Below are positions 30,854 to 58,026 of a stretch of DNA of 64,000 nt, piece after piece. The notes beneath the pieces were generated by a model. The model was given only the letters and a program-made list of their open reading frames with translations, was not told the origin of the DNA and made no database searches. Position numbers and translations under genes: made by a program. The DNA is from Bacteroidales bacterium (GTDB lineage: Bacteria; Bacteroidota; Bacteroidia; Bacteroidales; FEN-979), in contig OY820914.1 in NCBI GenBank assembly GCA_963682005.1, forward strand, positions 605,433 to 669,432. Reading direction: 5' to 3'. The number at the start of each line of letters is the position of its first letter. Position 1 is the stretch's first letter.

Positions 30854-30886
30854 CTTTACCATTGTAAATCAAAACAAGGAGGGCTT

Positions 30887-32192: not shown

Positions 32193-32273
32193 GGAAATTT
32201 CACTTCCGGGGCGGATTTCCGGATGTTGATCGGGACCGGGAACAGTAGTACAGTGACATATGGATGGGCATAA

Positions 32274-35789: not shown

Positions 35790-36878
35790 ATGCAAAAATT
35801 TTACTGTAACAGTTGTGAGAATACCTTCTTTCAGGATGCTTCCGACGGATTGACCTGCCCTTCCTGCGGCAGCAACAGTGTCGCCCTTCTTTCGGAGGAA
35901 ACCTCAGGTCATTTCTGGAAATCCATGACGTTCATTATTTCGATGGCCGTTATGGCCGTGATGCTCCTGACCCTGGTCCTGCTCCCATCCGGAAATAAGG
36001 TAATAAAACCTACATTCAACATCTCGGTAAAAACCTCCCCGAAAGATCGTCTTGTTGTTACGATTATTACGGTTGGAAATGAAACCGCTGATCCTAAAAA
36101 ATTCGAGTACTCTGTTGATAACGGATATACCTGGCACACCCAATACGCTTATTACTCTGAAATTAAACGGGATCTTTATATCCTGGTGCGAGAGAAAGCG
36201 AATCCGGAAGAGGTTATGGCCTATCCTGAAAACCCTGTCAGCTATGCGCCGGTTCCAAGGCTGATCGCAACGCCAAAAACCAAGGATTGCAATTGCCGTG
36301 AACTGATGATCATCTCTGTTGATCCCCCCGGAAAAGGCAGCAACATGATAACCATTCATGCTACCCTTCCACAATGTGAAAAATTGTATTCCATTACCGG
36401 TGCACCTGATTCCTATCAGACAGATAGTTCTTTTCTTCTTGATAAATCCGGGAGCTACACCATCTTTGTGAAAACCGCCAATTGTAATCCTGTCGCATAC
36501 GGCCGGAACCCGTTTGTTTATACAAGTAAGGAGTATGATCAGCCACAGCCAACAACGCCCCAGACCAACTATGTGCTGGAGGATAACATCGACAACAAGC
36601 CGTTAAAGCCGGCATCCAACGAAAGCAGGGACAAACTGCCCGCTACCATTGTGCAATCTATAATCAAGCCTTCTGAGACCTCCGTACATGGTTTGCTGAT
36701 TGTCACTTTTATTGTAGAAACCAGTGGCGAAGTATCCCACGTCAACATCATCAAAGGAATAAACGAAGGGGTTAACAGCAAGGTAAAGGATTACCTTGAA
36801 ACAATGGGTCTGTGGAATGTCGGACGGGTTAACGGTAAAACTGTTAAAACAAAAGTGACATTGCAGCTTACCTTCTAG
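35790..36878 (+). CDS. Zinc ribbon + TM + Ig-like + TonB C-terminal domain protein
   Basis: CxxC...CPSCGS, one TM, YSVD.G/YSI.G Ig-like segments and a C-terminal V.FIVE..G.V..V.I.KG...W..G...GK.V. A TACCTTTG promoter element lies at 35721. Confidence 0.7.
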   Translation: MQKFYCNSCENTFFQDASDGLTCPSCGSNSVALLSEETSGHFWKSMTFIISMAVMAVMLLTLVLLPSGNKVIKPTFNISVKTSPKDRLVVTIITVGNETADPKKFEYSVDNGYTWHTQYAYYSEIKRDLYILVREKANPEEVMAYPENPVSYAPVPRLIATPKTKDCNCRELMIISVDPPGKGSNMITIHATLPQCEKLYSITGAPDSYQTDSSFLLDKSGSYTIFVKTANCNPVAYGRNPFVYTSKEYDQPQPTTPQTNYVLEDNIDNKPLKPASNESRDKLPATIVQSIIKPSETSVHGLLIVTFIVETSGEVSHVNIIKGINEGVNSKVKDYLETMGLWNVGRVNGKTVKTKVTLQLTF

Positions 36879-36880
36879 GT

Positions 36881-38524
36881 TTATTTCTCTTTATGTGCCT
36901 TCCTGTCTGTTCCTGAATCCTGGCGATCGTAGATCAGATCTCCCGGACTTTGCGTGAAGATCTTTCTTGTTGTATGCTTGAGGGCAAAGTAACTTGCCAC
37001 AAGGATGAGGATCAGTGACGTTATCGTCCATTGATTCACCAGGTCGAAATAATTCTCACCCGCCTCCATGGGGCTTTTAAACAGGATGAGAACAAGCCTG
37101 ACCGCCCCCATTGAACCGACAGTCATATTGACCACGTACGAGATGACAATGGCAATGAGGATTACGCTGAAGATGATAGAAAGGTAAATCTTTTCCAGTG
37201 AACGATGATGGATCCCGAATGCCTTGAATGTGCCAATATTCATCTTGATCCGATCAAGGTGATTCCTTAAAAGATTGGTGAGGAATAAAATGATGCTGAG
37301 GACACTAAAGATCATTAGGATGATTGAAATGATCTGTGTCAGGTTGGATATGAAATTATAATTTTCCAGTGCTTTCACCTGTCCCATATCAATCCGCATT
37401 TTATGGGTTGCCTGCAGGTAATCGTTAAAGTCTTTCAGTTTATCCAGGCTGGTAAATTCAACGACCAGCTTATCCAGCCAGAAATTTGCAACGCTATCCA
37501 TCGTGACAGTAGTTGTATAATCAGCATACCTGGTAAAGCTGAATCCCCTTATTTTTTTATCATTTGCAAGAGCATGATAGATTCGATCCCGTAAAGCAAC
37601 GGATGTGTCAGGTTTAATTCCCACATTGATCTGGTAGCACGGAAAAAATGAGTAGTCATAGGGCTGTATGTCGACAATGGGTGCAAGGTGGTTGTATTTT
37701 GGATCTTCTTTGAGAAGTTGCTTGATCTTGTCTTTTAATTCATGTGCTCTTTTATCCTTTTCAATCGTCAGAAATGCAATCCCCGGGGGCAGTGTCGGAT
37801 CAAATGGGTTGTAGGTGGTCAGGGCCATTTGGCGTTGCTGGAAGAAATAGGTCGTTGCAAAAAAGTCATTTTTCCCCGGCAGCTCTCTGACAACGGCAAT
37901 AATTGGCAAAGGAACTTCCCTGAATTTATCCTCGGTGGTGGATTTATCCGGAAATGCCATGATGAGGTATGGTGACTTATGCTCATAACCGAGTTTTTTA
38001 AGCAGCTTGGATGTCACGATCAATCCCAGCTCCCTTTCCTGTAAAAATTCTCTTCCGTAGATGAGGTTACTGTCTTTCAGGATAACCTTTAGCATGGGGT
38101 TACCCAAGTCTATCGTTCTTCCCTTCATATCTTCGGATGCGGCATCATTCTTTCTGACATCCCAGAACCGGAGCGAGAATGACCGGTACCCTGTTACACT
38201 GCGGTATTTATATTTCTTTTTCGCCAGCGTATCTTCCTTAAGCTGCCTCATGATCTCAGGCAGTTCATCGGCCTGAACATAAGGAATATCAATGGATACC
38301 CATTTGATAAAAGGATCATTCATCTTTTCATTCAGGTAACGAAGGCTCCCTTTTGCAAAGCCAAGAGCAAAAAAAGTGATCAAGAAAATGATCAGCAGGA
38401 AAATAAAATTGCTGAAATTTTTTCCCATAAGCACTCGTCCTTCTTTTTTAAAAAAGAGGTAGGCAAAATCCACAGAAATATTGGTGAACAAATATTTTGA
38501 AAAAAAAGCAAATATTTTTTTCAT
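36881..38524 (-). CDS. FtsX/MacB/LolC-type ABC permease
   Basis: N-terminal TM, large periplasmic domain and three C-terminal TMs with the R.K.NIGTFKAFG coupling motif. Confidence 0.8.
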   Translation of the reverse strand: MKKIFAFFSKYLFTNISVDFAYLFFKKEGRVLMGKNFSNFIFLLIIFLITFFALGFAKGSLRYLNEKMNDPFIKWVSIDIPYVQADELPEIMRQLKEDTLAKKKYKYRSVTGYRSFSLRFWDVRKNDAASEDMKGRTIDLGNPMLKVILKDSNLIYGREFLQERELGLIVTSKLLKKLGYEHKSPYLIMAFPDKSTTEDKFREVPLPIIAVVRELPGKNDFFATTYFFQQRQMALTTYNPFDPTLPPGIAFLTIEKDKRAHELKDKIKQLLKEDPKYNHLAPIVDIQPYDYSFFPCYQINVGIKPDTSVALRDRIYHALANDKKIRGFSFTRYADYTTTVTMDSVANFWLDKLVVEFTSLDKLKDFNDYLQATHKMRIDMGQVKALENYNFISNLTQIISIILMIFSVLSIILFLTNLLRNHLDRIKMNIGTFKAFGIHHRSLEKIYLSIIFSVILIAIVISYVVNMTVGSMGAVRLVLILFKSPMEAGENYFDLVNQWTITSLILILVASYFALKHTTRKIFTQSPGDLIYDRQDSGTDRKAHKEK

Positions 38525-38556
38525 ATTTTCCAGTTTAGATGGATGGGTCTCCGGTT

Positions 38557-39381
38557 CTAAAATATCGATTGAATTTCCCTGAGGATATCAGGAACATCTT
38601 CATCCTGCCAGGTCAACCAGGAATTGGTTCCTCCTTTCCTTGTAAACAAACCATCCTGTGATAATTCAACAACCTTGTTTTCGGTCGCCTGTTCGCGCAA
38701 TAAGATCAGCACATCGGCATATTTTAATGAAAGATGAATGTTGTGGCTGACAATGATGGCTGATCTTTTGTTCTTCAGCAGGTTCTCCTTAAGAATGGAG
38801 ATAAGCTCATCGGAATTTGATTCATCCAGGTTGCCGGTTGGTTCGTCACCAAAGAGAACCGTAAATTTGGGAGTGATCGCTCTTACAAATGCAAGACGTT
38901 GTTTCTGCCCACCCGATAATTCAACGGCATTTTTCCAATCGGGGATTTCAGCAAGGCCCAGGGTCGACATAACAGAACGAACATTTGCATTTGCATTTTC
39001 CATGGTGGCTCCCTGGATCATCTGGGTCAGGCAGGCATTTTCCAAGGCAGTAAAATTCGGCATCAGGTTCGTATTCTGAAAAATAAAACTGAAATATTCC
39101 CGCCGGATCCTGCCTCTCTCCGAGAAAAGCTGTTCTTTCCAGAGATTTGCAAAGGAAATTTCCGAACTGTCCTCATTTGGCAAAAAAAGAATATCGCCAC
39201 TTTCGATCGTGTTGTTCATGAGTCCAAGGGTCTCCAGAAAGGTGCTTTTCCCGCTCCCGGATTTTCCCAGCAATACGACGAGCTTATTCCTTGGGATTTG
39301 AAGATCCGCGACTTTAAGCACAACATTCCCCCGTTTATATGCACAGTGGAGTTTCTTTATGATAAACAAAGGATTATCCAT
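38557..39381 (-). CDS. ABC ATP-binding protein (LolD/MacB-type)
   Basis: GKSGSGKS, FIFQ, LSGGQKQR, DEPTGNLD and VSH motifs. Confidence 0.92.
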   Translation of the reverse strand: MDNPLFIIKKLHCAYKRGNVVLKVADLQIPRNKLVVLLGKSGSGKSTFLETLGLMNNTIESGDILFLPNEDSSEISFANLWKEQLFSERGRIRREYFSFIFQNTNLMPNFTALENACLTQMIQGATMENANANVRSVMSTLGLAEIPDWKNAVELSGGQKQRLAFVRAITPKFTVLFGDEPTGNLDESNSDELISILKENLLKNKRSAIIVSHNIHLSLKYADVLILLREQATENKVVELSQDGLFTRKGGTNSWLTWQDEDVPDILREIQSIF

Positions 39382-39393
39382 ATATCCAACGTA

Positions 39394-40800
39394 TTAATAG
39401 AAAAAACGAAGGTCTACCCAATAGTACCGGGTGCTATTTGATACAAAAGTCAGCTTGCTGTTCTTCCCGGTGGATAACCGGGATAATTCATCCAGGCTTG
39501 TTCTCATTTTAGCCAGGAACGGGATGAGAAAGCTATCAGGAATCAGCGATTCATCTGTTAGTTTTCGTACAGAATTATTCAAAACGGCTTCGGATGAGTT
39601 TGTAATCCAGAAGAGATTCTCAAAAATTTCCTTCAACTTGTAATTCAATATTTTCTCCTCTTCAAGGTTCGGATATTCCTTTTTCATCAGGAGTATCAGG
39701 GTGAGTTTCAGTTTCTGCCTGTCGAGAACTGTTGATGAATTATCAATGACCGACCTCATATTCAACACCACTTCCATAAGCTCCTGGTTCGACATCAGGG
39801 TGACGTATTTGAACAGCGGATACTGCATGGAATCTGGTTTCCAGGGGGCATAGGCTGTTTTAAAATCATCGTCGACCATTTTAATTTTTTCTATTCCATC
39901 CTGTTCTTTGATCAGGGGAAAATAAATCCAATCATTTTTATCGCTTTCCGGTTGATAATTCCAGATCACGAACTTTTTGTCTGCCTTGCTTGTTTTCCTG
40001 AATCTGATGGCCTGCTCCTGATCAAAAAAGATGCTGGGAGCAATATTTTTCGAACTCATTTCACTCAATGCTTCAGGTGAATCGTTCGGCATGATCCAGG
40101 TCCGGGATTGCGGCAGGTAGCAAAAATCAATGGGAACCCATCCGATTATGATTTCCATTGGATCTGTACCAAAAGGGATTTTCCTTTCCCTGCCCAGGAG
40201 TATGGCCTTAGGTTCAATCTTATATACAAAATATAATTGCCTGGCTTCGGTGTATATTTTTCGTTTCTGCAGCAGTTCAGGGTCATTGTATACCTCCACC
40301 CCTGTTTTACTGTTCCCGGAGTTCTCTTGCGTGTTATACATATCTTCCTGGCCAAACGTCATAGCCTGAATATTTTGTTTCGTTTTCCCGTCGATAAGAC
40401 AATGACGCCATAAAAGGAGATCGTGCATATTGATCCAGCCTTTATCAACCGCTGTTTTTCCAAGATAAAAGTTATTCAGGTCTGGCGAGGGGTCCGAATA
40501 AACATGGAGGTATTCACCTACCATGTTGTTCACGAAATAGGTGTCATTTAACGATGCTTTCGAACCGATCTCCTTTGCCTCGGAAGTGCGGAAAAGGTTA
40601 TTGTTGCTCCTGTCTGAAAAAACTTCCCAGTAAGCCCCGGTATTTATGCTCAAAACATTACTCCTGTCCGCATTGTACTCAGGAACAATATATTCCTGTG
40701 GGATACCCATTATTTTAATTGGCAGATTCTTCTGCGCTGCGAGTACAAGAGGAAATAAGAGGAAAATGAAAATCATCCTCCTCTTTGAAAAATTGTCCAT
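39394..40800 (-). CDS. TssR-like protein lacking the vWA domain
   Basis: Shares WEVFSDR, GWI...LLLWR.CL, F.YK, GWV and the C-terminal YW.. with 40825..43266, but has no MIDAS motif; signal peptide present. Confidence 0.7.
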   Translation of the reverse strand: MDNFSKRRMIFIFLLFPLVLAAQKNLPIKIMGIPQEYIVPEYNADRSNVLSINTGAYWEVFSDRSNNNLFRTSEAKEIGSKASLNDTYFVNNMVGEYLHVYSDPSPDLNNFYLGKTAVDKGWINMHDLLLWRHCLIDGKTKQNIQAMTFGQEDMYNTQENSGNSKTGVEVYNDPELLQKRKIYTEARQLYFVYKIEPKAILLGRERKIPFGTDPMEIIIGWVPIDFCYLPQSRTWIMPNDSPEALSEMSSKNIAPSIFFDQEQAIRFRKTSKADKKFVIWNYQPESDKNDWIYFPLIKEQDGIEKIKMVDDDFKTAYAPWKPDSMQYPLFKYVTLMSNQELMEVVLNMRSVIDNSSTVLDRQKLKLTLILLMKKEYPNLEEEKILNYKLKEIFENLFWITNSSEAVLNNSVRKLTDESLIPDSFLIPFLAKMRTSLDELSRLSTGKNSKLTFVSNSTRYYWVDLRFFY

Positions 40801-40824
40801 GTATCGTATGAATCGGAATGAATA

Positions 40825-43266
40825 TTACGGCAGATCTGTTTGCTGGATCCAGTAGAACCGCTGTTCATGGTTTATAAACGAATAATGCTGATACCCTGGA
40901 ATATTATCCCTTATCTTGTTAAGAATCTTTTCCTTTGATCCGACCCTGTTTACCCATTTCGTCAGGTCTCTGTCTGATATGATGGAAGCATCTCCGATAT
41001 CGCGGATCTTATGCTGAAGGAGTTCGGTCTTCCCGACCGCACCAAATACAGTGGCTTCAGCTTCTGCAAGGGACATCTCCTCAATTTCCTTGTTTGAGAC
41101 GGACCCCATATGGCTTTTAAGCACCTGCATCCATGCGTTCTTAAATGCCTCCCTCAGCTGATCCGGGCTTAGCCCTTGTTCAATGGACAAGCTCTTTATC
41201 CGTAAAATCAATTCGGAGAGTTCCTCATTGCTGAAAAGAAGATCAAACTGCCAGAGGGGCAACTGTGCATTTTTTATGGTATTTGTGGTATAGCCCTCAC
41301 TGTAAACCTGTGCATGTTCTTCTGCAAGTATTTTCAGGTTTTCAACAGGAATATCCCAGATCGTCAGAAGGTTTAATACAGGACCAGTGAGGTTTTCCGT
41401 ACCTCCTCCATCCTGAAGATTCTGAACATTGGCCAGGGTGGCATTTGTAGAATCATTGATGCCGTGAATTGCTTTCACGATTTCTTTTGTTAACACTGGT
41501 GCTGACATGACGCCATCCTGACCAACAAACGTCTGTTGCATGACAAAACCTGCCTTTAAGGGAGAATTCAATAACATCCATTTTTTATCCTGGTCATAAT
41601 TGACCGGTAGAGTTGGGGGGGGCTTCACTGAATTTGTGGCATTTGCTGCATCCTGGAAATCGTTATAAACAAGCCGGCCCAACGTCACCAGGATATTCTT
41701 GGTATCCTTTACGAATTTATTGTAATACTCCCATCCGGCTTTGGGACAATGGACCTGGAAAGCAATGAAGCTGCAATTATAATCATGAAGCAGGTTGATG
41801 ACATCCGTGTTTGTAACAGGATTGTCATCGATCGCCTTGCCGTTATCTCCGGCATCTCCCACCAGGATAACAACATTTGTCTGCTTCTTGTCGGGGCTTG
41901 TTTTACGCAAAGCCGAACTTACACCATAGTTCACAGCTTCCGTAAAATCATGGTCATCATCATTGCTGAATGCTTTTCTATCCCGAAGCCAGCTTGCGAT
42001 TACACCATAATCGGAACTCAATCCTTTAAATTCTGCAACATTGTCCTTATCTTCCTTGTCCCTGTATATCATCACGGAAAATCTGAAATCATTCCTTTTG
42101 TCTGAGACAAGGTCCTTCATGCTCTCAATGATCCCCTCGCTTACACTGGCAAAATAGGGACTCATGCTTTTCGTTCCGTCAATCACGAAGATCATATTGA
42201 TGTTGCGGTTGATATCGCTACCCTTATTCAATAATTCCTTGGTATCAGCCCATTGAAATTCCGTGAGTTTACGGCCGCTTATGGTGTTGACTTCACCGAT
42301 CGATCCGATCTTAAAGATTTGATTTGTTTTATTGATCTCATCCTGGTTGGACAGGATCGGGAACCGGCTGAAATAGGAGCCGTATTGACTAATTGATTTG
42401 CATGAGTCATAATCCCAGACGACAGATTCAGGAGGGGGCTGTTGATTATCACGGTATTTCCGGGCTGCTTCGATGGTACTGAAAACGATGGCCTTGGATT
42501 TACGGGAATTCCTTTCTGAGATGGCTTCTGAAGCTGTATTGGGTATGGAAGCAACACGGTGATCCCAAACTGTAACCCGTTTTGCATCAACCCAACCTTT
42601 CACAGCATCCTTTTCAACATAATTCATAAACCTCGCCGTTGTGCCGAGCAGGTATGATCTGGGCTTTGTTGAGTTCGGAAAATAATTGATCTTATAGATG
42701 TAAAAAACCTGGTAAACATTGCATACATATTCATTTTTTTCCTTCATGTCAGGATCATCATAGAACCTAACAAATTTTGATTCGCCCGGCTCGAGCTTCG
42801 CCTTGGTCGCAAATTTTATGGTATTCATCAGGACGGCTTTTTTCGAAACGTCCTGTTCATTGTAAAGGCAACTCCTCCAAAGCAAAAGATTATCCTGGTG
42901 GATCCAACCATAATCCTTTGATGCCAGTGAGGGTTTCATTTCCTGTTCTGCCAGGTTATTATCCTTATAGATATGGATGTATTCTCCATCCACTTCTCCC
43001 ACGAAAAACCAATCCAGGTATTTTAAGGTTTTCATGACTTTTGTTCCGCCAGGAGTTGTATAAGTCTGATTCTTATTCCTGTCGGAAAACACCTCCCAGA
43101 TTGCCGTCAGATTGTCTCCCGGCAATTCTACTTTTGCTTCTAGATGTGGCTTATTATACTTGTTTGGGAGCATCTTGTAAGATTTTTCCCCGGTCTGGGC
43201 AAATCCTGAGCAAAATAGCAACAACAACAAATTCAAACACAGTAAACTCCTGAACATGAAAATCAT
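40825..43266 (-). CDS. tssR: T6SS-iii TssR-family protein with a vWA domain
   Basis: WEVFSDR.KN, LLLW..CL, vWA FVIDGTKSM...VILVGDAG and C-terminal FYWI...LP. The likely start is 43266; the 43323 start overlaps the upstream gene. Confidence 0.78.
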   Translation of the reverse strand: MIFMFRSLLCLNLLLLLFCSGFAQTGEKSYKMLPNKYNKPHLEAKVELPGDNLTAIWEVFSDRNKNQTYTTPGGTKVMKTLKYLDWFFVGEVDGEYIHIYKDNNLAEQEMKPSLASKDYGWIHQDNLLLWRSCLYNEQDVSKKAVLMNTIKFATKAKLEPGESKFVRFYDDPDMKEKNEYVCNVYQVFYIYKINYFPNSTKPRSYLLGTTARFMNYVEKDAVKGWVDAKRVTVWDHRVASIPNTASEAISERNSRKSKAIVFSTIEAARKYRDNQQPPPESVVWDYDSCKSISQYGSYFSRFPILSNQDEINKTNQIFKIGSIGEVNTISGRKLTEFQWADTKELLNKGSDINRNINMIFVIDGTKSMSPYFASVSEGIIESMKDLVSDKRNDFRFSVMIYRDKEDKDNVAEFKGLSSDYGVIASWLRDRKAFSNDDDHDFTEAVNYGVSSALRKTSPDKKQTNVVILVGDAGDNGKAIDDNPVTNTDVINLLHDYNCSFIAFQVHCPKAGWEYYNKFVKDTKNILVTLGRLVYNDFQDAANATNSVKPPPTLPVNYDQDKKWMLLNSPLKAGFVMQQTFVGQDGVMSAPVLTKEIVKAIHGINDSTNATLANVQNLQDGGGTENLTGPVLNLLTIWDIPVENLKILAEEHAQVYSEGYTTNTIKNAQLPLWQFDLLFSNEELSELILRIKSLSIEQGLSPDQLREAFKNAWMQVLKSHMGSVSNKEIEEMSLAEAEATVFGAVGKTELLQHKIRDIGDASIISDRDLTKWVNRVGSKEKILNKIRDNIPGYQHYSFINHEQRFYWIQQTDLP

Positions 43267-43279
43267 AGTTTGTCTCCTC

Positions 43280-45373: not shown

Positions 45374-45411
45374 AATTTCGATTGAACTCCTCAGGTTAAC
45401 GTCAAAACTTT

Positions 45412-46932: not shown

Positions 46933-46954
46933 TTTTTTTGCTGTTAAAAATGAA

Positions 46955-48388
46955 TTAATAGACCAGGGTTTTGCTGATCAACCGTTCGCCGTTGCCGAGG
47001 ACAGCTTCGATGAAGTATATACCTTTATTCAGGCCAACCAACTCCAGAGGCACATTTTCAACCTGGACAGTCTTATCATACCTTATGCGTTTCATTTCAT
47101 TTCCAATGACATCTCTGACAAAAACATCCACCGTGCCACTATAATCACTATTAAGTTCACAGTTTAAATGGCCATCGTTCGGATTTGGAAAAATTCTCAT
47201 AAATGATGTTTCGATAATTGCTTTTGATGAGTCTGTAGGATAATATTCCCTGTAACAATCAGAATTGTCATTCGAAGAAACTTCCAAATAATAGGTATAA
47301 TCTGAAATACTATTTGTTTCATATACACAAAATACTTTACCATCAAAGTTCCCGCATTCACTACAGGTATCTTTAAAGGGCTCTTTTTTTATTTTCCCCC
47401 AGCGATAAGAATTTTGATATGGATCACAGGATGTACACATCAGAAAGAGCTTATTTGAATTTGGGTAAGCATTTAGCTTTCTTTCAATTGTTTCTCTTCC
47501 TTTACCATGAATAAAAAACAAGGAAGCTTCTGCTGTATCGATATCCGAACATGTAATATTTAATGGTTTCATATGACAAAAAATGGTATCCCTTCCAATT
47601 TTATATGAATTTGTTTTAAAAGTATATAGGTCTTGTCCCTTATATGATTTGCCGTGTAATTCCCACCTAAAATAATATTCTGCAGGGTTTGAGGGGTTTG
47701 CATGGAATTCAATCGTGTCATTATAACAGGCGGAATATAATGGATCACCCGCCGATGTAGTTGCTGTTATTGTTAGGCTGTTAAGAAAGGGTTCAATAAC
47801 ATGAATATTTTTTGTGATTGAAGCGGAACTTAGGCATGTTCCTGTTTTATTTTTAGCAGAAATATCTCCACCCGCAAAAACACTATCGAACGACACAATT
47901 ATACTACCAGTACTTCCTCCGCTAACTATATGTGAATTGGGGGGTAAAGACCAATAACAGTTTTGAACCGGAACTCCGAATTTATAGGCAATGTAAGGAA
48001 CTGATCCTTCACCCGCACAAACGCTACTTTTCCCGGAAAGAGAATCGAGGTTGTCAGGAATACTTAATATGTGGATATATAAAGTGTCGTCAGGCCCTTC
48101 CCCATTAATATTTACAGCACGTGCTGTAAGATAAAAAATTCCTGAAGTATTTCCGGCAGCAATTAAAACTGTATCTCGATTGGGATCATATGGATATTCC
48201 ATTCCCCCATTCCATTCATTATTCCAGATAACATTTGTCACACCTTGAATTTTATCAATGTAAAATTTTTGTGTTGTAAGTGTACAAATTGAATCTGGAC
48301 CATTAATCGTTGGCTGAATCGGTACTTGTCCACGAATTACCGTAATACCCAAAAATAAAAAGGTTAAAAATAAGGGAACTTTTTTCAT
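46955..48388 (-). CDS. T9SS type A CTD protein with PKD-like/Ig repeats
   Basis: Signal peptide, I.GP..IC and SG..SVC repeats, CTD IFPNPN.G...L.KGIYFI...K.LV. Confidence 0.85.
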   Translation of the reverse strand: MKKVPLFLTFLFLGITVIRGQVPIQPTINGPDSICTLTTQKFYIDKIQGVTNVIWNNEWNGGMEYPYDPNRDTVLIAAGNTSGIFYLTARAVNINGEGPDDTLYIHILSIPDNLDSLSGKSSVCAGEGSVPYIAYKFGVPVQNCYWSLPPNSHIVSGGSTGSIIVSFDSVFAGGDISAKNKTGTCLSSASITKNIHVIEPFLNSLTITATTSAGDPLYSACYNDTIEFHANPSNPAEYYFRWELHGKSYKGQDLYTFKTNSYKIGRDTIFCHMKPLNITCSDIDTAEASLFFIHGKGRETIERKLNAYPNSNKLFLMCTSCDPYQNSYRWGKIKKEPFKDTCSECGNFDGKVFCVYETNSISDYTYYLEVSSNDNSDCYREYYPTDSSKAIIETSFMRIFPNPNDGHLNCELNSDYSGTVDVFVRDVIGNEMKRIRYDKTVQVENVPLELVGLNKGIYFIEAVLGNGERLISKTLVY

Positions 48389-48497
48389 ATGAAAACCATT
48401 TTAAACCATTAATTACTATTATCTTATTCTAAACAAATTGTTTAAGTCAAAAATTGATCATATAATTTATTTATTTTTTAATACAGGATTTTTAAAA

Positions 48498-51400
48498 TTA
48501 TTTGTTACCAGAAGACTCCAATCCAACAGGGGGAGTCGGAGCGACAGGAAATCTCACTCCAACATGTTTCGACAGAATAACTCCGTTATTGTCTTTCCTG
48601 TCATCTCGCGTAGCAACAACAGACCACGAAAAAGATACATTGGATGAGCCATGATTAAGTTCATAAACATCAAACCCTTCCTTTGTCTTGTTTGTAACAT
48701 AAACTCCATTGCACTCACCTTCTAGTTGAACGAAAACCTTCATTGGACATTCTTCGTTTACAATAATGTTTTTTGAGAATACCGGGTCAAGTGTAATATG
48801 AGAATGACCGGCTATTAACCTATCAACCCCATAGTCTGTAAACAAGATATCCGGCGATTCTGGGCAAAACATCATAACTTGTTTTCCGTGTTGATTTTCA
48901 ACAATAGTTCCTGCAACCCCGGTACCAGTAACCTTATAATCCGTACCGCCAGATGTTTTGCCTCCAAGATAGGATTGGGCAGTCCCGCAAGAAAAGAACC
49001 CTCCGTAGTTTCCATTTGAGGACACGGTTGCAACTGCATATAAACCATATATCTTCCCAAAAAACCCGCCTCCTGCACCACCAGAAACTGAACCTCCGGA
49101 TGAACCTCCTCCTATTCCAATAATTCCAACTCCATTTGTATTTGTATTGGTTGACTTGATGACAGCATCACTGGTAGAGGAAACGGATGACGAGATATCA
49201 ATGGTGGATGAGGAGTTAAATGGGCCAGTCATTGTTCCTCCCGCTGTAGGAAGGGCGCTTATATCTGAACAATTCAAACTTCTGCTATTTGCGGAAGTAA
49301 GTCTCCCTTTCGAATCAACGGTAAAGTATGGAACACTTGCACCGGAACTTCCACCATATGATCCGGAAGCAACACCAGATGTTGAAAGAGCCAGTGTGCC
49401 AGTATTGCTGATACTTGCATCTCCTGACATGATGACATCTGTTGCAGTACCCGATGAATTACCTACAAAGATATGTGCTGAAACTAACGAAGAGGATAAC
49501 AATGGTCCATAAGTGGAATTATTAATTCTTGCAAATAATCCTGATGTGGTTGTCCATAAATCGCCATTTACAGGTGAAGAGGGAGCCGTTCCATGAGGTA
49601 AGCTAACCCCTGAGTTGCCCGATGATGATGCCACTGTTGTTAATTTCCCAGTCATTGTTCCTCCAGCAATTGGCAGAGCCCCAAAATCAGAACACGCCAG
49701 ATTTCGGCTGTTGGCAACAGTAAGTCTTCCTTTGGAATCAACAGAAAAATAGGGAACGCTCGGACCAGAACCTGATCCATATGATCCTGCATTAACACCC
49801 GATGGCGACAGCGTTAATGTGCCAGAACTACTTAAACCAGCATCTCCTGACATGGACACATCTGTTGCCACATTTGATGCATTCCCTACAAAAATATGTG
49901 ATGATGATAATGTAGCCGTTAAAGCATTAATATCCCCGAGGTTCAGATTTCTGCTATTCGCAGAAGTAAGTCTGCCTTTTGAATCAACGGTCAGATACGG
50001 AACACTTGCTCCACTGCTACCCCCATAGGATCCTGCAGTTACACCAGAGGCTGAAAGGGTAAGAGCTCCGGTGTTGCTCATTGTTGCATCACCGGTCATG
50101 GCCACATCTGTTGCTGCATTCGATACGTTTCCAACAAATATGTGCGATGAAGTTAACCCTGATTGAAGCAATGGTCCTGTTGTTGTATTATTGGCCCGAA
50201 CAAACAAACCTGCACTTGTAGTCCACAGATCACCGTTTACTGGTGCAGCGGGAGCAATACCATGGGGCAGATTCAGTCCGGCATTTCCCGCGGTAGAACC
50301 AACAGTATTCAACTTCCCTGTCATTGTTCCCCCTGTTGTGGGTAATCTTAACGTAGTAAACGTATTCCAATCTGTGGATGATAAAAATCCAGGCAGTGAA
50401 CCGTTGGCTTTCTGGCCATTTGTATAATCCAGTGAGACGATTCCTGTAGCTGCATCAAAATCTGAAGATGTAAATGCTGAAGCCCCTTTGGTACTTCCGT
50501 CGGCAGCTGCATCTGCAATTGATATAACAGGTGTTGTACCACCGCTTGAGCTCACAGGTAAAGTACCAGTTACTGATGTAACCGTCCCTGTTGTTGAGCT
50601 TAATGGTCCTACAGTAGTGTTATTTACCCGCACAAATAACCCGCCCGTTGTTGTCCACATATCACCATTGCCTGGAGAAGTTGGTGCAATCCCATGGGGC
50701 AGATTCAGTCCGGCATTTCCCGCGGTAGAACCAACAGTATTCAACTTCCCTGTCATGGTTCCTCCTGTTGTGGGTAATCTCAACGTAGTAAATGTATTCC
50801 AATCTGTGGATGATAAAAATCCAGAAACAGAACCATTTGCCTTTTGTCCGTTAGAATAATCCAGGGATACAATGCCAGTTGAAGTATTGAAATCCGCTGC
50901 TGTAAAGGTGGACGCTCCTTTTGTACTTCCATCGGCTATGGCATCCAGAATTGAAATTGCCGGAGTTGTGCCACCGGTTGATGCAACAGGAGTCGTTCCG
51001 GTCACGGATGTTACTGTCCCTGTTGTTGAACTTAATGGGCCAATAGTACTACCGTTAATACGGATAAAAAGGCCTCCTGTGGTCGTCCATATATCACCAT
51101 TGCCGGGTGAAGATGGTGCAATCCCATGAGGCAGATTCAGACCGGCATTTCCCGCGGCAGAACCAACAGTATTCAATTTCCCTGTCATTGTTCCTCCTGT
51201 TGTAGGTAATCTTAACGTAGTAAAAGTATTCCAATCTGCGGATGATAAAAATCCAGAAACAGAACCATTTGCCTTTTGTCCGTTAGAATAATCCAGCGAA
51301 ATCACTCCTGTGGTGGCGTTAAAATCTGTTGCTGTATATGTTGATGCACCTTTCGTACCTCCGTCAGCTGCTGCATCAGCAATTGATATGATCGGAGCTG

Positions 51401-51860
51401 TACCACCGCTTGAAATTACTGGAGCCGTCCCAGTAACAGACGTAACCCCGGTTCCCGACCCTGACTTCTTCGCATACATCGCATACGGAACATATTTGAA
51501 CTGGGATGTTCCAATTTCCGTATAAGCAGATGCCCCGGAAAGTTTAATCGTAGTCCTTAAATAATAGGAAGCATCACTCCAATCAATGGAATCAAATTTC
51601 CCTACTCTATCGATTCCGGCACCAACACTTAGTGTTACCAATCCCAAATCACTTGTTATCGTATCATGCTTTTCACTATATATTACAGAACCGACAGGAC
51701 TTCCTTTCAGGATATACAATTTAAAGCTTACAGCCTGGTTTATCACCTGGATCCCGGAATTATCCCTGACAACCATTTGAAAATTAAACGGGGTGCCGGA
51801 TTGTGCAAATGCTGAAACTGCCAACCCCATCACAACGAAAAACACGTAAAGCTTTTTCAT
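48498..51860 (-). CDS. Secreted tail-fibre-like (probably trimeric) repeat adhesin
   Basis: Signal peptide; Bacteroidota N-domain FNFQ.VVRD..G...YSE.H...GL..L.VG...VPYAMYA; three 144-aa repeats and three ~80-aa SSHIFVGN...VDSKGRLT repeats; LP..GGTMTG motifs. Confidence 0.75.
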   Translation of the reverse strand: MKKLYVFFVVMGLAVSAFAQSGTPFNFQMVVRDNSGIQVINQAVSFKLYILKGSPVGSVIYSEKHDTITSDLGLVTLSVGAGIDRVGKFDSIDWSDASYYLRTTIKLSGASAYTEIGTSQFKYVPYAMYAKKSGSGTGVTSVTGTAPVISSGGTAPIISIADAAADGGTKGASTYTATDFNATTGVISLDYSNGQKANGSVSGFLSSADWNTFTTLRLPTTGGTMTGKLNTVGSAAGNAGLNLPHGIAPSSPGNGDIWTTTGGLFIRINGSTIGPLSSTTGTVTSVTGTTPVASTGGTTPAISILDAIADGSTKGASTFTAADFNTSTGIVSLDYSNGQKANGSVSGFLSSTDWNTFTTLRLPTTGGTMTGKLNTVGSTAGNAGLNLPHGIAPTSPGNGDMWTTTGGLFVRVNNTTVGPLSSTTGTVTSVTGTLPVSSSGGTTPVISIADAAADGSTKGASAFTSSDFDAATGIVSLDYTNGQKANGSLPGFLSSTDWNTFTTLRLPTTGGTMTGKLNTVGSTAGNAGLNLPHGIAPAAPVNGDLWTTSAGLFVRANNTTTGPLLQSGLTSSHIFVGNVSNAATDVAMTGDATMSNTGALTLSASGVTAGSYGGSSGASVPYLTVDSKGRLTSANSRNLNLGDINALTATLSSSHIFVGNASNVATDVSMSGDAGLSSSGTLTLSPSGVNAGSYGSGSGPSVPYFSVDSKGRLTVANSRNLACSDFGALPIAGGTMTGKLTTVASSSGNSGVSLPHGTAPSSPVNGDLWTTTSGLFARINNSTYGPLLSSSLVSAHIFVGNSSGTATDVIMSGDASISNTGTLALSTSGVASGSYGGSSGASVPYFTVDSKGRLTSANSRSLNCSDISALPTAGGTMTGPFNSSSTIDISSSVSSTSDAVIKSTNTNTNGVGIIGIGGGSSGGSVSGGAGGGFFGKIYGLYAVATVSSNGNYGGFFSCGTAQSYLGGKTSGGTDYKVTGTGVAGTIVENQHGKQVMMFCPESPDILFTDYGVDRLIAGHSHITLDPVFSKNIIVNEECPMKVFVQLEGECNGVYVTNKTKEGFDVYELNHGSSNVSFSWSVVATRDDRKDNNGVILSKHVGVRFPVAPTPPVGLESSGNK
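50170..51460. repeat. Three intragenic 432-bp direct repeats
   Basis: GCAGATTCAG..CGGCATTTCCCGCGG recurs at 50267, 50699 and 51131 (exact 432-bp period); the outer boundaries are approximate. Confidence 0.85.
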
Positions 51861-51915
51861 ATGTTTTGTTTTATAAAGTATTCTCGAAATCAGTCCTTAT
51901 TCCCTTTTGAAAAAT

Positions 51916-53799
51916 TTACCTGGCAATAATGATCTTCCGGATCTCGCCGGCTGCATCATTCCCTGTTCTGAAATAAATAAAATAAATTCCATTCGGCAGA
52001 TCAGAAACATCTACCTTATACTGATGCGAACCCGCAGGAAGCAATCCGAATTCATTCTGCTTACAATTATTCCCCAGCAACCCTTCGATACCAATAGATA
52101 CGCGAACTTCCTGCGCAAGACTGAAGACTACATTCAGAACGGTACTTGCGGGATTCGGGTAGATCCTGCAATTTGCAATGAGCGGATCGTTTTCTGCAGT
52201 ATTGCCGGACGACAAGGCCTTCAATACGGGAGCGGAGAGAATCATGTTGCTGAGAGGTTCTCCTTCGCTATCCGCCAGCTCAGACTCCTCATCAAGGGAG
52301 AACCGGACGACAGATGAAGAACTGAATTTCTCCGAAATCTTAACATGCAATGTGATCAGTATATCTTCCGCTAAAACCTGGATCGGATCCAGTTCGGACC
52401 AAACAATCCTTACCTGATCTTTGTAGATACTGAATAACAATCCCGGTTTACTAAAGGAGACATCCCTGATGGTTAAAAGTTCACTTGGATAATTGATCTT
52501 CAGCGTAATTGCACCAATCTGAGCCCCGGTTTTCAACCTGAGCGGAATTTCAATTTCCTGTGCCTGACTAACTCCTATAATTTGCTCCTGAACAAGTTCA
52601 ACCTCATTTTGAAATGATTTGCCTGTAAAAGGTACATATGAACTGTTTACGTCTCCAACGCATAACCCATAGAAATTATCGGTATTTGCGACACTATTCA
52701 CAATAATGGCATTACCACCGATCGCAGGCAGGGAGAATGTCCAATCCCCTCTGTTAAACAAATTAATTTGGCCAAGAAACCTCTTTTTAACCAATAATGC
52801 ATCTGTCCCATTTATATAATTACTGTTATCGACATCGCCTGCAAGCAATTTGACAGGCTCACTCCAATTTTCTAACCCTGCAAACTCGCGTTGAATTTTC
52901 AGCGCATCCGTTGAGTTCACACTCTTCCAGATTTTTTTTGTGGAGGCTTCCAGGTTATATTCCCCCATAGGAATGTTACTAATTAAATAGTACCCCGAAC
53001 TATTCGTTGAGAAGAACCCAAATATCTCATTATTCTTCTTAAGGACAAGATTTATGCTATCCAATCCTGAATTACTCACATAATAATATGAAAATGTCCC
53101 GGAAACCGTAGCCGGAGTGAATATAGTTCCATTGTGATAATAAAGGCCTGAAGGCTGGTCCGTCACTGTTGATCCGCCAGCTTTATGATATCTGCAATCC
53201 TTGCCGCCATTGGATTCGTTATTAAAAGTTAACGAAGCAATATTTCCGGATACGTGTGTAAAGTTCAGATCCATCAACTTCGAATAGTGTGAAAGTGTAA
53301 CTGGTATGGCAGATGACCACCTGATTAAAATTGCATGTATGGCGCCAGAAATGGTGGTATCATTGAGCTGAACACCAGAGCTGATTGATAAATTAACATT
53401 GGTGTGTGATGTAAAAGTGAGTAAGGTCGAGTCATATTCGATTCTTAGCTTCATGGTATCCATCCCAGTAAAACCAAAGACTCTGATTGGCATTACTGCC
53501 GTATTGCCGATAGCCGCACCTGTATCTGTCAACATGGTAATGGGTGCCGTATAAATCTCCGGTTGCTGAAACCCGGTTGTGGCTTTGATACCGGGCACCG
53601 ATAATGTATTCACAATATTTTCACCAACCGTAATGCTCTGGGGACCTATAATTCCTGAATAACTATCGCCCAGGGAGGAAATTACCACAGGGCCGTAATT
53701 CTGGCAAAACAAAGGGGCCGCCGGAAACCAGAAAAGGAACAACATCCAAAAAACAGTTCTTCCAGAAACCTTTTGACTGGATTGTCGATTTGTCTTCAT
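51916..53799 (-). CDS. T9SS type A CTD protein with cohesin-like and dockerin-like domains
   Basis: Cohesin-like segments MPIRV.GF......L.I.YD..LL.F and IPLRL...IGAITL.I.Y; dockerin-like VNSTDAL and GDVDNS.YINGTDAL; CTD IYPNPA...LPNGIYF...KIII. Confidence 0.8.
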   Translation of the reverse strand: MKTNRQSSQKVSGRTVFWMLFLFWFPAAPLFCQNYGPVVISSLGDSYSGIIGPQSITVGENIVNTLSVPGIKATTGFQQPEIYTAPITMLTDTGAAIGNTAVMPIRVFGFTGMDTMKLRIEYDSTLLTFTSHTNVNLSISSGVQLNDTTISGAIHAILIRWSSAIPVTLSHYSKLMDLNFTHVSGNIASLTFNNESNGGKDCRYHKAGGSTVTDQPSGLYYHNGTIFTPATVSGTFSYYYVSNSGLDSINLVLKKNNEIFGFFSTNSSGYYLISNIPMGEYNLEASTKKIWKSVNSTDALKIQREFAGLENWSEPVKLLAGDVDNSNYINGTDALLVKKRFLGQINLFNRGDWTFSLPAIGGNAIIVNSVANTDNFYGLCVGDVNSSYVPFTGKSFQNEVELVQEQIIGVSQAQEIEIPLRLKTGAQIGAITLKINYPSELLTIRDVSFSKPGLLFSIYKDQVRIVWSELDPIQVLAEDILITLHVKISEKFSSSSVVRFSLDEESELADSEGEPLSNMILSAPVLKALSSGNTAENDPLIANCRIYPNPASTVLNVVFSLAQEVRVSIGIEGLLGNNCKQNEFGLLPAGSHQYKVDVSDLPNGIYFIYFRTGNDAAGEIRKIIIAR

Positions 53800-53963
53800 C
53801 GGGTTTGGTTTTACAAATGAATCACTTACTTCCGAAATGAAAGGGCTAGTTCATAGTATTTGGTGCTGAATAAGGAAAAACAAATCAATACTATAATATA
53901 ACAAATATAAAAAAAATTCAAAAGAAACAATAAAATTTTTACTTTTGGATTAAATTTTTCTCT

Positions 53964-55355
53964 ATGACCATGAACATCTTATCCAAGTCAATTGTCACTA
54001 AACGATTCCTGTTGCTCTCCCTGATTCTCCTTGTCGCATTTTCCGCTAAATCCCAGGTATCCGGAAAGGGCTATGGCAGGTACCTGAAAAGTGAATATCA
54101 AAAGGCTTTTGAATGTTACAAGGAGGCTTTGATGGAGAGTGATACGGATGTGGTTGCCAATTACGGGATGAGCTTATTATATTCCAATAACACGTTCCCG
54201 CAATACAACTATTTCAAGGCATTCAGGTATATCCGGAAAGCAAAAAAAGACCTCTCGACTTATGATGACAAGGGCCTGATCAATCTGAACAAGATTGTCC
54301 CTGATATAAAAGCCAAGGTCGATCAGGATTATGATGCGATCGAAAAAAAGCTCTTTGATTTTATCAACAGTCATTCTACCATAGAATACACAGACATTTT
54401 CGTGAATGAGTTCCAGGATTCAAAATTCCGGCACGATGTGGTTCAGATGAGGAACCGCGGGTATTTCCTGAAAGCAAAAACGGCAGATAACGTAACCGAA
54501 TATAACCTGTTCATCGAGCGGTTCCCGGATGCCAGCGACCTTCCCGAGGCGTTAAAACTAAGGGATTATGCGGCATACCGTGATCTGCGGACGAATCTTA
54601 AACTGGATAAGGTGTATGAGTATATCCGCAATTATCCCTTGAGCGAACAGCGCGAGCAGGTTTATAACCTCTATGATTCACTGGACTTTGAAAACACACT
54701 GGCTACAGGAACGGAAGAAGGTTACTCTTCGTTCTTAATGCGTCATCCGAAAGCAAAACAGTCACCAAAAGCCATTGAATTATACATTAAGAAAAAGTAC
54801 GCGGCAACCCAGGAAAAGAATACGACAAAAGCATACAACATGTTTCTTGACCAGTTCTTCACTGCAGAACAACGGGAAAGCGCGCTTAATCTGAGGAACA
54901 AATTGTTCTTCGAGGAAATAAAGGAGCTGAATAATGTTGAAAAGTACAATAAGTATATTTCCACAATTTCTGATGGCCCCCTGAAACAGGAAGCAGTCAA
55001 CGAACGCGACAAGAAGGCATTTGAAGATGCAAAAGAGGCCAAGTCAATCCTTGCTCTTGAGAACTTTATCTATACCTGCCCGGGTGCTGTTCAGATTAAA
55101 CAGGCAACCATCCTGCGCGATTCACTTGTGTTTGAACAATGTAAAACAATGGTTTCCACCGAACGGTTCTATGAATACATGCGCAGCTATCCTACCCTGA
55201 CAAGCAAGCCAAAAGCCATCGAAATCCTGGAACAACTGGCATACAAGGAAGCTGAAGCAAAAAACACAAAGGAAGCTTACGAAGAATTCATCCTGAATCA
55301 TCCTCTTGCACCACAAAGGAAAGCTGCGCAAGAGCGTGCAAATAAAGTCAAATAA
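53964..55355 (+). CDS. Exported TPR/helical-repeat protein
   Basis: Signal peptide and about ten Y..F(I/L)..(Y/F/H)P.(A/S) helical repeats. A TACTTTTG promoter element lies at 53940. Confidence 0.75.
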   Translation: MTMNILSKSIVTKRFLLLSLILLVAFSAKSQVSGKGYGRYLKSEYQKAFECYKEALMESDTDVVANYGMSLLYSNNTFPQYNYFKAFRYIRKAKKDLSTYDDKGLINLNKIVPDIKAKVDQDYDAIEKKLFDFINSHSTIEYTDIFVNEFQDSKFRHDVVQMRNRGYFLKAKTADNVTEYNLFIERFPDASDLPEALKLRDYAAYRDLRTNLKLDKVYEYIRNYPLSEQREQVYNLYDSLDFENTLATGTEEGYSSFLMRHPKAKQSPKAIELYIKKKYAATQEKNTTKAYNMFLDQFFTAEQRESALNLRNKLFFEEIKELNNVEKYNKYISTISDGPLKQEAVNERDKKAFEDAKEAKSILALENFIYTCPGAVQIKQATILRDSLVFEQCKTMVSTERFYEYMRSYPTLTSKPKAIEILEQLAYKEAEAKNTKEAYEEFILNHPLAPQRKAAQERANKVK

Positions 55356-56979: not shown

Positions 56980-57068
56980 AATTTCAAGTTTTATAATAAT
57001 CGTAGCATAATTTCTCCCGATAACATTTTCTCCTGTTGTCTTTTTGCTGCCCGGTTTTTCCTTAAGGG

Positions 57069-58016: not shown

Positions 58017-58026
58017 AATATTTATT

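Follow-up and report, generated by a model that had tools for sequence, protein, structure and literature searches.

The membrane complex of type VI secretion systems (T6SS) of subtype iii, as described in Bacteroides fragilis, is an assembly of TssN, TssO, TssP and TssQ together with TssR, which is essential (Bongiovanni et al. 2024, PMC10781749). According to the accessible text of that study, an ancestral system of the T6SS-iii membrane complex was sought and none was reported, and no homologues of the membrane complex were detected outside T6SS loci in 1253 complete genomes, with complete complexes required. In the available part of a 2026 review of T6SS accessory factors, the entries for T6SS-iii are TagA, TagB and TagC only, and TagS and TagT are given only for the Pseudomonas H1 system and Rhodobacter. 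Among the literature matches listed, no publication ties T6SS-iii or TssR to an ATP-binding cassette (ABC) transporter, FtsX, MacB or LolC, in agreement with an earlier, sequence-only reading of the DNA analyzed here, according to which no ABC transporter is known as a core component of T6SS-iii. Here we examine a stretch of 64,000 nucleotides from a Bacteroidales bacterium (assembly GCA_963682005.1, contig OY820914.1, positions 605,433 to 669,432; hereafter, the window) that encompasses a T6SS-iii locus with an embedded block of genes for two TssR family proteins, an ABC transporter, an outer-membrane beta-barrel and apparent substrates of the type IX secretion system (T9SS). By comparison with other genomes, this block is one copy of a conserved Bacteroidota envelope operon and not a chance insertion.

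The T6SS-iii locus spans approximately positions 15857-59007, from clpV to tssG, and its gene set is complete, as judged from the listing of open reading frames (ORFs) and from Pfam and NCBIfam scans. Between the tssF-tssE pair and the group consisting of a TssO-like gene, tssK, tssN and tssG lie nine co-oriented minus-strand genes, and every gene of this run that the sequence-only reading had listed is indeed present. Two plus-strand genes that the sequence-only reading does not describe, one of 362 amino acids (aa) at 35790-36878 and one of 463 aa at 53964-55355, interrupt the minus-strand picture. The genes of this region are as follows, with the Pfam family scores in brackets unless another source is named.

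33169-35043, minus strand: tssF, 624 aa; belongs to the BLAST family of the gene that stands beside tssE in textbook loci
35062-35514, minus strand: tssE (GPW_gp25, 4.8e-10)
35790-36878, plus strand: putative divergent TssP-like protein, 362 aa; the gene converges on that of the permease
36881-38524, minus strand: predicted type VII (MacB/LolC-fold) ABC permease, 547 aa (FtsX, 3.2e-5)
38557-39381, minus strand: LolD/MacB-type ABC ATPase, 274 aa (ABC_tran, 1.9e-22)
39394-40800, minus strand: TssR paralogue without the VWA domain, 468 aa (TssR, 2.9e-7; TssR_C, 2.3e-6)
40825-43323, minus strand: full-length TssR, 832 aa (TssR, 7.5e-17; TssR_VWA, 2.5e-17; TssR_C, 9.4e-11)
43280-45373, minus strand: P697, an exported protein of 697 aa with a Pro-rich linker (no Pfam match)
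45412-46932, minus strand: outer-membrane beta-barrel, 506 aa (OMP_b-brl_2, 2.4e-8; weak TPR in the N-terminal extension)
46955-48388, minus strand: PKD-like T9SS-exported protein, 477 aa (PKD_6, 4.8e-7; Por_Secre_tail, 1.3e-6)
48498-51860, minus strand: repetitive secreted "fibre", 1120 aa; signal peptide and about three long repeats in the translation
51916-53799, minus strand: cohesin-like/dockerin T9SS-exported surface protein, 627 aa; first gene of the run
53964-55355, plus strand: exported helical-repeat (TPR-like) protein, 463 aa (weak NCBIfam YbgF-like match, 0.0021)
55525-56013, minus strand: TssO/TssQ-like small protein, 162 aa; one transmembrane helix and a coiled coil
56032-59007, minus strand: tssK, tssN and tssG, baseplate and inner-membrane hub genes

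From the first gene of the run to the permease, the intergenic gaps are 55, 109, 22 and 38 bp, followed by a 44-nt overlap between P697 and TssR and by gaps of 24, 12 and 32 bp; with the 20th codon of TssR as the start, the overlap becomes a gap of 13 nt.

When one genome per species was scanned with a profile of the permease, 243 relatives were found, and the best 80 of the 243 loci were examined. At the level of sequence clusters, the permease has about 100 relatives, every one of them unnamed and some fused to an ABC ATPase. Searches with the window proteins (tblastn) detected the ATPase in 72 of the 80 loci and TssR in 65, the misses being mostly on short contigs. A co-directional TssR gene is located within 8 kb upstream of the permease in 53 of the 55 loci with at least 4.2 kb of upstream DNA, and in these 53 loci the order TssR, ATPase, permease recurs, with a median gap between TssR and the ATPase of 15 bp (57 loci). 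Independently, in a sample of 401 Bacteroidota genomes that are at least 90% complete, five genomes carry the permease family and in all five TssR is found 2-5 kb away. The sole clear exceptions to this linkage are L043 and L060, in which there is no TssR within reach despite the presence of at least 4.2 kb of upstream DNA. Both of these loci, together with L066, where the upstream DNA is too short to tell, are T6SS-positive; upstream of clpV, at a distance of one or two genes, all three contain a fused ATPase-permease.

The extent of the operon was delimited by clustering 894 ORFs of these loci, followed by iterative profile searches and Pfam analysis of cluster representatives. Components upstream of TssR were counted wherever at least 4.5 kb of DNA precedes the first long TssR (42 loci): the barrel is present in 32 of the 42, a T9SS-tailed gene in 24, the small domain shared with the C-terminus of P697 in 21, and TssP in 16. 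The recurring order begins with a variable protein with a T9SS C-terminal sorting domain, continues with an N-terminally extended OMP_b-brl_2 barrel, a protein of the TssP type and a small secreted domain, and ends with one or more TssR proteins, the ATPase and the permease. The sorting-domain proteins of the operon are of the PKD_5, PKD_6, MBG, Ig_7 or cohesin types, and the small conserved secreted domain either stands alone, as a protein of approximately 215 aa, or forms the C-terminus of P697-like proteins. The invariant core consists of one to four TssR family proteins directly followed by a LolD-like ATPase and a LolC/MacB-fold permease, which are separate or fused. TssR duplication is common, with three or four paralogues in a row before the ATPase in L012, L016, L028 and L061; relatives of TssR without the VWA domain, 460-495 aa in length, occupy the same position as in the window in L006, L008, L012, L016 and L018. 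The proposal of the sequence-only reading that the ABC transporter, the barrel, the double TssR and the T9SS proteins constitute one unit is borne out by these counts.

The exceptions to the full operon are mainly a variant without a barrel or a T9SS gene in Prolixibacteraceae. In the variant loci (L041, L042, L047, L050, L058, L065, L071, L072, L075 and L082, from Prolixibacteraceae and Bacteroidales bins, all TssC-negative), the TssR, here about 875 aa long, is placed between a 606-aa type I ABC exporter (ABC_membrane and ABC_tran) and an ATPase-permease fusion of about 1030 aa; in L047, L065, L071, L072, L075 and L082, the module is followed by an M48 peptidase. Four loci with a Bacteroidota-type gene arrangement bear labels of other taxa, namely, Enterobacteriaceae (L017), Thioalkalivibrio (L023), Caldiserica (L027) and Bifidobacteriaceae (L073). 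These contigs probably are mis-binned, and the three that are represented in the TssR tree described below (L017, L027 and L073) group among the Bacteroidota rows.

Within the run, the barrel, with a jackhmmer family of 39 proteins from 39 sources and OMP_b-brl_2 matches in members from other loci as well, is a core component of the module, and the 477-aa PKD-like protein occupies the conserved slot of the T9SS-tailed gene upstream of the barrel. P697 has a conserved C-terminal domain of approximately 150 aa, with residues 539-672 matching a profile of the 195-215-aa proteins that precede TssR elsewhere. The BLAST single-linkage clustering had suggested that these 195-215-aa proteins were fragments of TssR; this possibility was rejected because they match only the C-terminal part of 634-657-aa hybrids and of P697. 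The 627-aa protein contains cohesin (8.9e-6) and dockerin (Dockerin_1, 3.9e-5) domains and a type A C-terminal sorting domain (Por_Secre_tail, 2.3e-9), which is the only part that it has in common with the upstream genes of other loci. For the 1120-aa fibre, no match was found in Pfam, in NCBIfam or, by sequence, in the PDB, and no relative was found across the 80 loci; it lacks a T9SS sorting domain and has a Gly-rich stretch close to the C-terminus. Like the cohesin/dockerin protein, the fibre is an addition to the operon that is specific to this lineage. The 463-aa TPR-like protein, relatives of which are located beside TssR-ABC modules in L007, L012 and L015, is an accessory of this clan of modules.

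The permease scores 24.4 bits with the Pfam FtsX family, just below the cut-off of 25.5, and many of its relatives carry this domain (PF02687). Hydropathy analysis and an AlphaFold2 model (mean predicted local distance difference test score, pLDDT, 86.7) agree on four transmembrane helices and an FtsX-type C-terminal transmembrane bundle, and a large periplasmic domain, about 310 aa in size, is placed between the first and the second helices. A profile search against the PDB by sequence produced no match to any solved chain. The top Foldseek matches of the model are LolE/LolC, MacB, YtrF, HrtB, YbbP, BceB and FtsX, with a probability of 1.00, the matched LolE and LolC structures being lipoprotein-bound, and the model thus predicts a type VII ABC fold for the permease. 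The ATPase scores best with NCBIfam LolD (1.2e-37) and also matches FtsE, DevA and MacB, all below their respective cut-offs; the Walker A, Q-loop, signature, Walker B and H-loop motifs are all intact in its translation. Type VII ABC systems are described, in the accessible parts of PMC12646458 and PMC11627006, as powering periplasmic processes and not the transport of solutes across the membrane. The partners needed for a tripartite pump of the MacAB-TolC type are missing: the Pfam scan of the ORFs at 32274-62694 detected neither a MacA/HlyD adaptor nor an OEP/TolC-family duct, and the barrel belongs to OMP_b-brl_2. Co-folding of the periplasmic domain of the permease (residues 60-392) with the VWA-less TssR (residues 24-468) gave scores of 0.00 and 0.00, without controls, and thus speaks neither for nor against a contact.

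A PF17643 search of the 5.27-Mb, single-contig genome detected no TssR genes besides the two in the window. The window TssR has a signal peptide of the signal peptidase I type and no lipobox, and this is the prevalent condition: 58 of 61 full-length TssRs linked to the transporter lack a lipobox, and their signal peptides end in the usual signal-peptidase-I "...AQ" form, whereas a lipobox, as defined with a loose regular expression, is found in 3 of the 61 and in 2 of 4 textbook TssRs. The scarcity of lipoboxes therefore fits anchoring of the transporter-linked TssRs through partner proteins and not through lipid. In a tree built by quick search (LG+G4, midpoint root), 65 full-length TssRs fall into two clans, both starred. 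All 22 rows of clan I come from TssC-positive genomes, with 18 linked to the transporter and 4 textbook; in the linked rows, from Chitinophagales, Saprospiraceae and Flavobacteriales, TssR is followed by a fused ATPase-permease. In clan II, 38 of the 43 rows come from TssC-negative genomes, with the remaining five contributed by the window, L008, L018 and L020 (two copies). A second tree, of 27 rows, was obtained with a mixture model (quick posterior mean site frequency analysis) and rooted on clan II; there, the textbook TssRs form a single clade (support 91) inside the transporter-linked T6SS group (95, starred). Because of this nesting, the tree, taken at face value, suggests that the Bacteroidales-type loci have lost the transporter, and the distribution of lipoboxes between textbook and linked TssRs is consistent with such a loss.

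The sequence-only reading had envisaged a different trans-envelope apparatus without a recognizable TssP; our analysis points instead to an extended version of the known complex. Four textbook T6SS-iii loci were compared, and in these, the order is two small genes, a gene of about 300-330 aa, tssR and then clpV (tssF in one locus). The third gene is homologous to our ORF family f2 (E-values from 1e-14 to 1e-24) and matches TssP in the published tssQ-O-P-R order, and therefore we identify f2 with TssP. The window contains no member of f2, and a profile of the TssP D4 domain found no match anywhere in the genome; the D4-only profile was used instead of a full-length TssP profile, which matched only large PKD-repeat proteins. 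The TssQ profile likewise found no match in the genome. The sequence-only reading, which recognized neither TssP nor TssQ here, had passed over a divergent candidate for TssP at 35790-36878. The AlphaFold2 model of this 362-aa protein (mean pLDDT 70.1) shows a cytoplasmic zinc ribbon, one transmembrane helix, two Ig-like domains and a TonB-C-like domain, with Foldseek matches to tandem Ig domains and to a TonB C-terminal domain (6i97_D, probability 1.00). Comparison of its family with the TssP family gave an hhalign probability of 65.6% (E 5.8e-5). The orthologue in L020 has a D4-type C-terminus that matches the TssP-D4 profile (E 3.8e-4); the C-terminus of the window protein itself is an alpha/beta domain, TonB-C-like rather than D4. 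Homologues adjoin the permease in L006, L008 and L020 and fill the TssP slot between the barrel and TssR in L017. Given this predicted architecture, we read the 362-aa protein as a divergent TssP, and the only TssP-like gene of the genome thus adjoins the module. The 162-aa gene beside tssK has no Pfam match itself, and its L020 orthologue (tblastn 1.5e-13) matches Pfam TssO (3.1e-5 over positions 2-147 of 148) and our TssQ profile (1.3e-3); through this orthologue, the gene at 55525-56013 is classified as probably TssO/Q-like. No second small gene of the TssO/TssQ kind was found in the whole genome with Pfam TssO or with our own TssQ and TssO profiles of four sequences each. The known T6SS-iii membrane complex is extended here and not replaced, because the TssP-like protein, TssN and one TssO/Q-like protein are all present.

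We propose, with a probability of about one half, that this T6SS owes the periplasmic and outer part of its envelope complex to the module. In favor of this proposal are the linkage of TssR to the transporter, the wider operon, the repeated union with T6SS-iii in differing arrangements, the absence of any other TssR in the genome, the position of the textbook TssRs in the rooted tree, the scarcity of lipoboxes, and the type VII fold of the permease with an ATPase whose motifs are intact. The principal argument is synteny. Two other genomes, G408 (L008/L092) and G418 (L020/L093), contain the same T6SS subtype as the window, with TssC 75% identical and TssC profile scores of approximately 486-514 bits (508 in the window), and in both, the module is located between tssE-F and tssO-K-N-G or adjoins them. 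The order in L020 is barrel-like gene, a 297-aa ORF without a family, P697-like gene, two tssR, ATPase, permease, TssP-like gene, tssO, tssK, tssN, tssG, tssE and tssF. The permeases of the three genomes are only 35-42% identical and the arrangement is still kept, which argues that the module works with the T6SS here. In 11 loci from other taxonomic orders, a fused ATPase-permease is found between tssR and clpV-tssBC, directly upstream of clpV, and two Saprospiraceae loci have the order tssR, ABC/FtsX, two tssO, tssN, tssK, tssB, tssC.

From the observed gene content, conservation of gene order, folds and distribution with and without T6SS, we infer how such an assembly might be put together, what ATP hydrolysis might do in it and what part, if any, the T9SS proteins might play. 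In the most economical arrangement, a surface protein would be delivered by T9SS, and the outer membrane would harbor the barrel; the periplasm would contain TssR, its paralogue without VWA, and P697; and the inner membrane would house the TssP-like protein, TssN, TssO and the ABC permease. Through ATP hydrolysis, the periplasmic domain of the permease would be set in motion, so that the transporter, rather than pumping a solute, would serve as an ATP-driven mechanotransmitter for assembling, holding or gating the scaffold, or for relaying a signal from the surface. The sole pointer to a link between T9SS and the weapon is the conserved position of the variable T9SS-tailed gene upstream of the barrel.

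Several observations weigh against this proposal and lend themselves to another explanation, namely, that the module is an autonomous surface or periplasmic device, for instance, a transducer of surface signals or envelope stress, which merely neighbors a T6SS that runs without TssR. TssC was found in 25 of the 80 permease-bearing genomes and is absent from 55, although these counts rest largely on metagenome bins that might be incomplete, so the absence is soft. The TssR and ABC genes are, moreover, present in two complete Cyclobacteriaceae chromosomes, in the isolate draft of Roseimarinus sediminis DSM 28824 and in one more genome, and no TssC or TssN was found in these four; in the first three (G001, G003 and G004), neither a phage-type sheath nor gp25/TssE was detected. 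These three genomes and the 55 carriers without TssC indicate that the module works without any contractile system. Four other permease carriers in the 401-genome sample, listed as 100% complete, likewise lack TssC, and seven TssC-positive genomes of that sample have TssR but no permease. In G002, the T6SS core is 1.2 Mb away from the TssR-ABC module, and there is no other TssR in the genome. The window TssR itself belongs to the mostly T6SS-less clan II (38 of 43 rows), the modules of which often adjoin genes for FHA, PP2C and Ser/Thr kinase proteins, neighbors that point to signaling more than to scaffolding; it should be added that the TssR trees come from quick searches, with long branches, a true root that is not known and only four textbook rows. 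According to the accessible text of PMC10781749, tssR is absent or unidentifiable in 31% of T6SS-iii, which also would suit an independent module. On the other side stand the synteny with tssE-F and tssO-K-N-G in three genomes with such diverged permeases, the existence of an entire TssR clan that is linked to T6SS and located inside tss operons, and the proof, in B. fragilis, that TssR and TssP are components of T6SS-iii (PMC10781749, accessible text). Taken together, an autonomous module seems somewhat unlikely. The sequence-only reading had held that the block would be an unrelated insertion if its homologues occurred mostly without T6SS genes: most carriers indeed lack TssC, yet the transporter almost always comes with TssR. 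The occurrence of TssR and TssP homologues in genomes without a contractile system qualifies the published statement that membrane-complex homologues were not detected outside T6SS loci. As a separate observation, two TssC-negative carriers encode a phage-type sheath and gp25 at a distance of 45-75 kb from the module, on the contig that carries it (G147, contig C65, at about 78-85 kb; G331, contig C11, at about 576-582 kb), and these could belong to an extracellular or a type iv contractile system.

The same kinase, phosphatase and FHA neighbors, which we found beside related modules in 13 (Ser/Thr kinase), 9 (PP2C) and 10 (FHA) loci, are of the classes of PpkA, PppA and Fha1 of Pseudomonas aeruginosa, and they invite the idea of a firing-control sensor analogous to TagQRST. 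Under this explanation, the surface proteins and the barrel would sense contact or damage, and TssR with the transporter would relay the signal to the baseplate, so that the module would regulate the site and the timing of T6SS assembly and would not itself belong to the structure of the channel. In the accessible text of PMC13584744, TagS (a COG4591 permease) and TagT (a COG1136 ATPase) form an ABC-like complex that is needed for activation of H1-T6SS; in that of PMC13713981, the ATPase activity of TagST is required, and the complex lies close to TssL and TssB; and extracellular antennae have been proposed as the firing trigger in the T6SS-iv of Aureispira (bioRxiv 10.1101/2024.01.29.577165, available part). 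However, no FHA, PP2C or kinase family was detected among the window ORFs scanned and no TagQ- or TagR-like protein is present; the kinase-linked loci all come from TssC-negative genomes except for L018; and TssR is a structural, essential subunit of the membrane complex in B. fragilis. A dedicated sensor of this kind is, accordingly, a distinctly unlikely alternative. The transporter could also be thought of as a dedicated Lol-like sorter that takes a lipoprotein TssR out of the inner membrane and hands it on toward the outer membrane: its best structural matches are the lipoprotein-bound LolE and LolC, its ATPase scores best with LolD, and the B. fragilis TssR has a lipoprotein signal (PMC10781749, accessible text). 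This hypothesis, however, predicts lipoboxes in the linked TssRs, and the opposite is observed, with no lipobox in 58 of the 61, the window's included, and a lipobox in two of the four TssRs that lack the transporter; it is largely refuted by this pattern and can be retained only as a very improbable one.

Two of the five parts of the T6SS-iii membrane complex, TssR and TssP, belong to a wider operon that exists with and without a T6SS, so that this operon is a concrete candidate for the ancestral machine of the complex. Tentatively, and at somewhat less than even odds, we suggest that the barrel, TssP, TssR, the type VII ABC transporter and a T9SS-exported surface protein together make up an old free-standing trans-envelope machine of Bacteroidota from which the membrane complex of T6SS-iii was co-opted. 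The Bacteroidales complex, with a lipoprotein TssR, no barrel and no ABC transporter, would then be a reduced derivative, and in many environmental lineages an ATP-driven apparatus connected to the cell surface would still serve the T6SS-iii as the route of firing or as the trigger. Descent of the T6SS-iii membrane complex from a TssR-centered module powered by a type VII ABC transporter seems probable, and the transporter would be a new accessory or core component for many T6SS-iii outside gut Bacteroidales. Carriers of the module are available in culture both with a T6SS (Flaviaesturariibacter amylovorans JCM 17919) and without one (Roseimarinus sediminis DSM 28824).

The rest of the locus and its surroundings are described here for completeness. 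The contractile part is encoded upstream of the region listed above:

15857-23481, plus strand: clpV, tssB, tssC, two hcp, vgrG and PAAR, the contractile part of T6SS-iii

Pfam matches in this segment include AAA_2/ClpB, Phage_GPD/Phage_base_V and PAAR_motif, along with TssC (PF17541, 4.6e-152) and TssD, that is, Hcp (6.6e-44 and 1.4e-31). Within the tssK-tssN-tssG group, TssN (PF17555, 4.4e-23) is at 57069-58016, between TssK and TssG, and the matches of the latter two are weak (T6SS_TssG, 2.8e-4; TssK, 7.7e-10, below the NCBIfam cut-off). TssC, Hcp, VgrG, ClpV and TssE/F/G/K, which identify a T6SS-iii, are thus all found in the window. The window system nevertheless appears to be a divergent subtype because its TssC scores about 508 bits, compared to about 750-800 bits in textbook genomes. 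Effector, immunity and adaptor genes extend up to 33131. In the cargo region, 23011-33131, a WHH/colicin-DNase nuclease is accompanied by a SUKH immunity gene, and two PAAR proteins and two DUF4123 adaptor-like proteins are encoded; of three further products, one (482 aa) is astacin-like, one D123 ATP-grasp-like and one Ssp4-like (NCBIfam NF053808, 5.5e-50, below the cut-off); DUF4123 adaptors are known mostly from proteobacterial T6SS-i. Directly upstream of clpV, at 13893-15501 (plus strand), are genes for an extracytoplasmic function (ECF)-type sigma factor (Sigma70_r2/r4_2), a zf-HC2 anti-sigma factor and a Metal_resist (Spy/CpxP-like) periplasmic protein, which might act as a switch that couples the T6SS to envelope stress. 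The segments 2047-9261 (plus strand) and 11792-12226 (minus strand) contain a DsrE-like gene and a cluster of heterodisulfide-reductase-like genes (FlpD, Pyr_redox_2 and 4Fe-4S proteins), which suggest an anaerobic host, and an IS1595-type zinc-ribbon fragment, located between this cluster and the T6SS. A scan with a sigma-70 consensus, which is not that of Bacteroidota, gave 45 promoters, compared to 45.8 in shuffled sequences, and a terminator scan gave 19, compared to 17.6, so that both counts are at the level of chance and carry no information.

Among the known systems to which the window locus can be compared, the T6SS-iv of Aureispira (bioRxiv 10.1101/2024.01.29.577165) resembles it in being a contractile weapon of Bacteroidota with T9SS-secreted grappling hooks and antennae and with a trans-envelope complex of unknown composition; it is of another subtype, "TssR" and "ABC" occur 0 times in the available part of the preprint, and the likeness would be functional only. 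The type VII ABC transporters MacB, LolCDE, FtsEX, YbbAP, BceAB and HrtBA share with the window pair the four transmembrane helices, the large periplasmic domain and the LolD/FtsE-like ATPase. The periplasmic domain of the window permease, however, is larger than in the matched LolC, LolE and MacB chains, and its partners are TssR family proteins and an OMP_b-brl_2 barrel, with no MacA/HlyD, TolC, LolA or EnvC.

The H1-T6SS of P. aeruginosa, with its TagQRST/PpkA/PppA/Fha1 set, is similar, in the accessible text of PMC13584744 and PMC13713981, in that an FtsX/LolE-class permease and a LolD-class ATPase are encoded in a T6SS locus together with envelope proteins; the adjacency of FHA, PP2C and Ser/Thr kinase genes is a likeness by gene class, and it holds for the related loci, not for the window. 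The two systems belong to different T6SS types (i and iii) and different phyla, and the window lacks TagQ, TagR, the kinase, the phosphatase and FHA; the transporter nonetheless has a parallel in TagST, the role of which also is not known. The closest relative remains the TssN-O-P-Q-R complex of B. fragilis, as presented in the accessible text of PMC10781749. The window locus shares with it TssN between tssK and tssG, a small, probably TssO-like gene with a transmembrane helix and a coiled coil, a transmembrane protein with two Ig-like domains as the putative TssP, and the N, VWA and C domains of TssR, all encoded beside the baseplate genes. The additional genes of the window do not feature in that text, where "ABC" occurs 0 times. 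The differences are that the window shows one TssO/Q-like gene only, that its TssP-like protein adds a zinc ribbon and a TonB-C-like end, that its TssR is duplicated, with one copy lacking VWA, and has no lipoprotein signal, and that tssR is followed by the ATPase and the predicted type VII permease and preceded by the barrel, P697 and the T9SS proteins.

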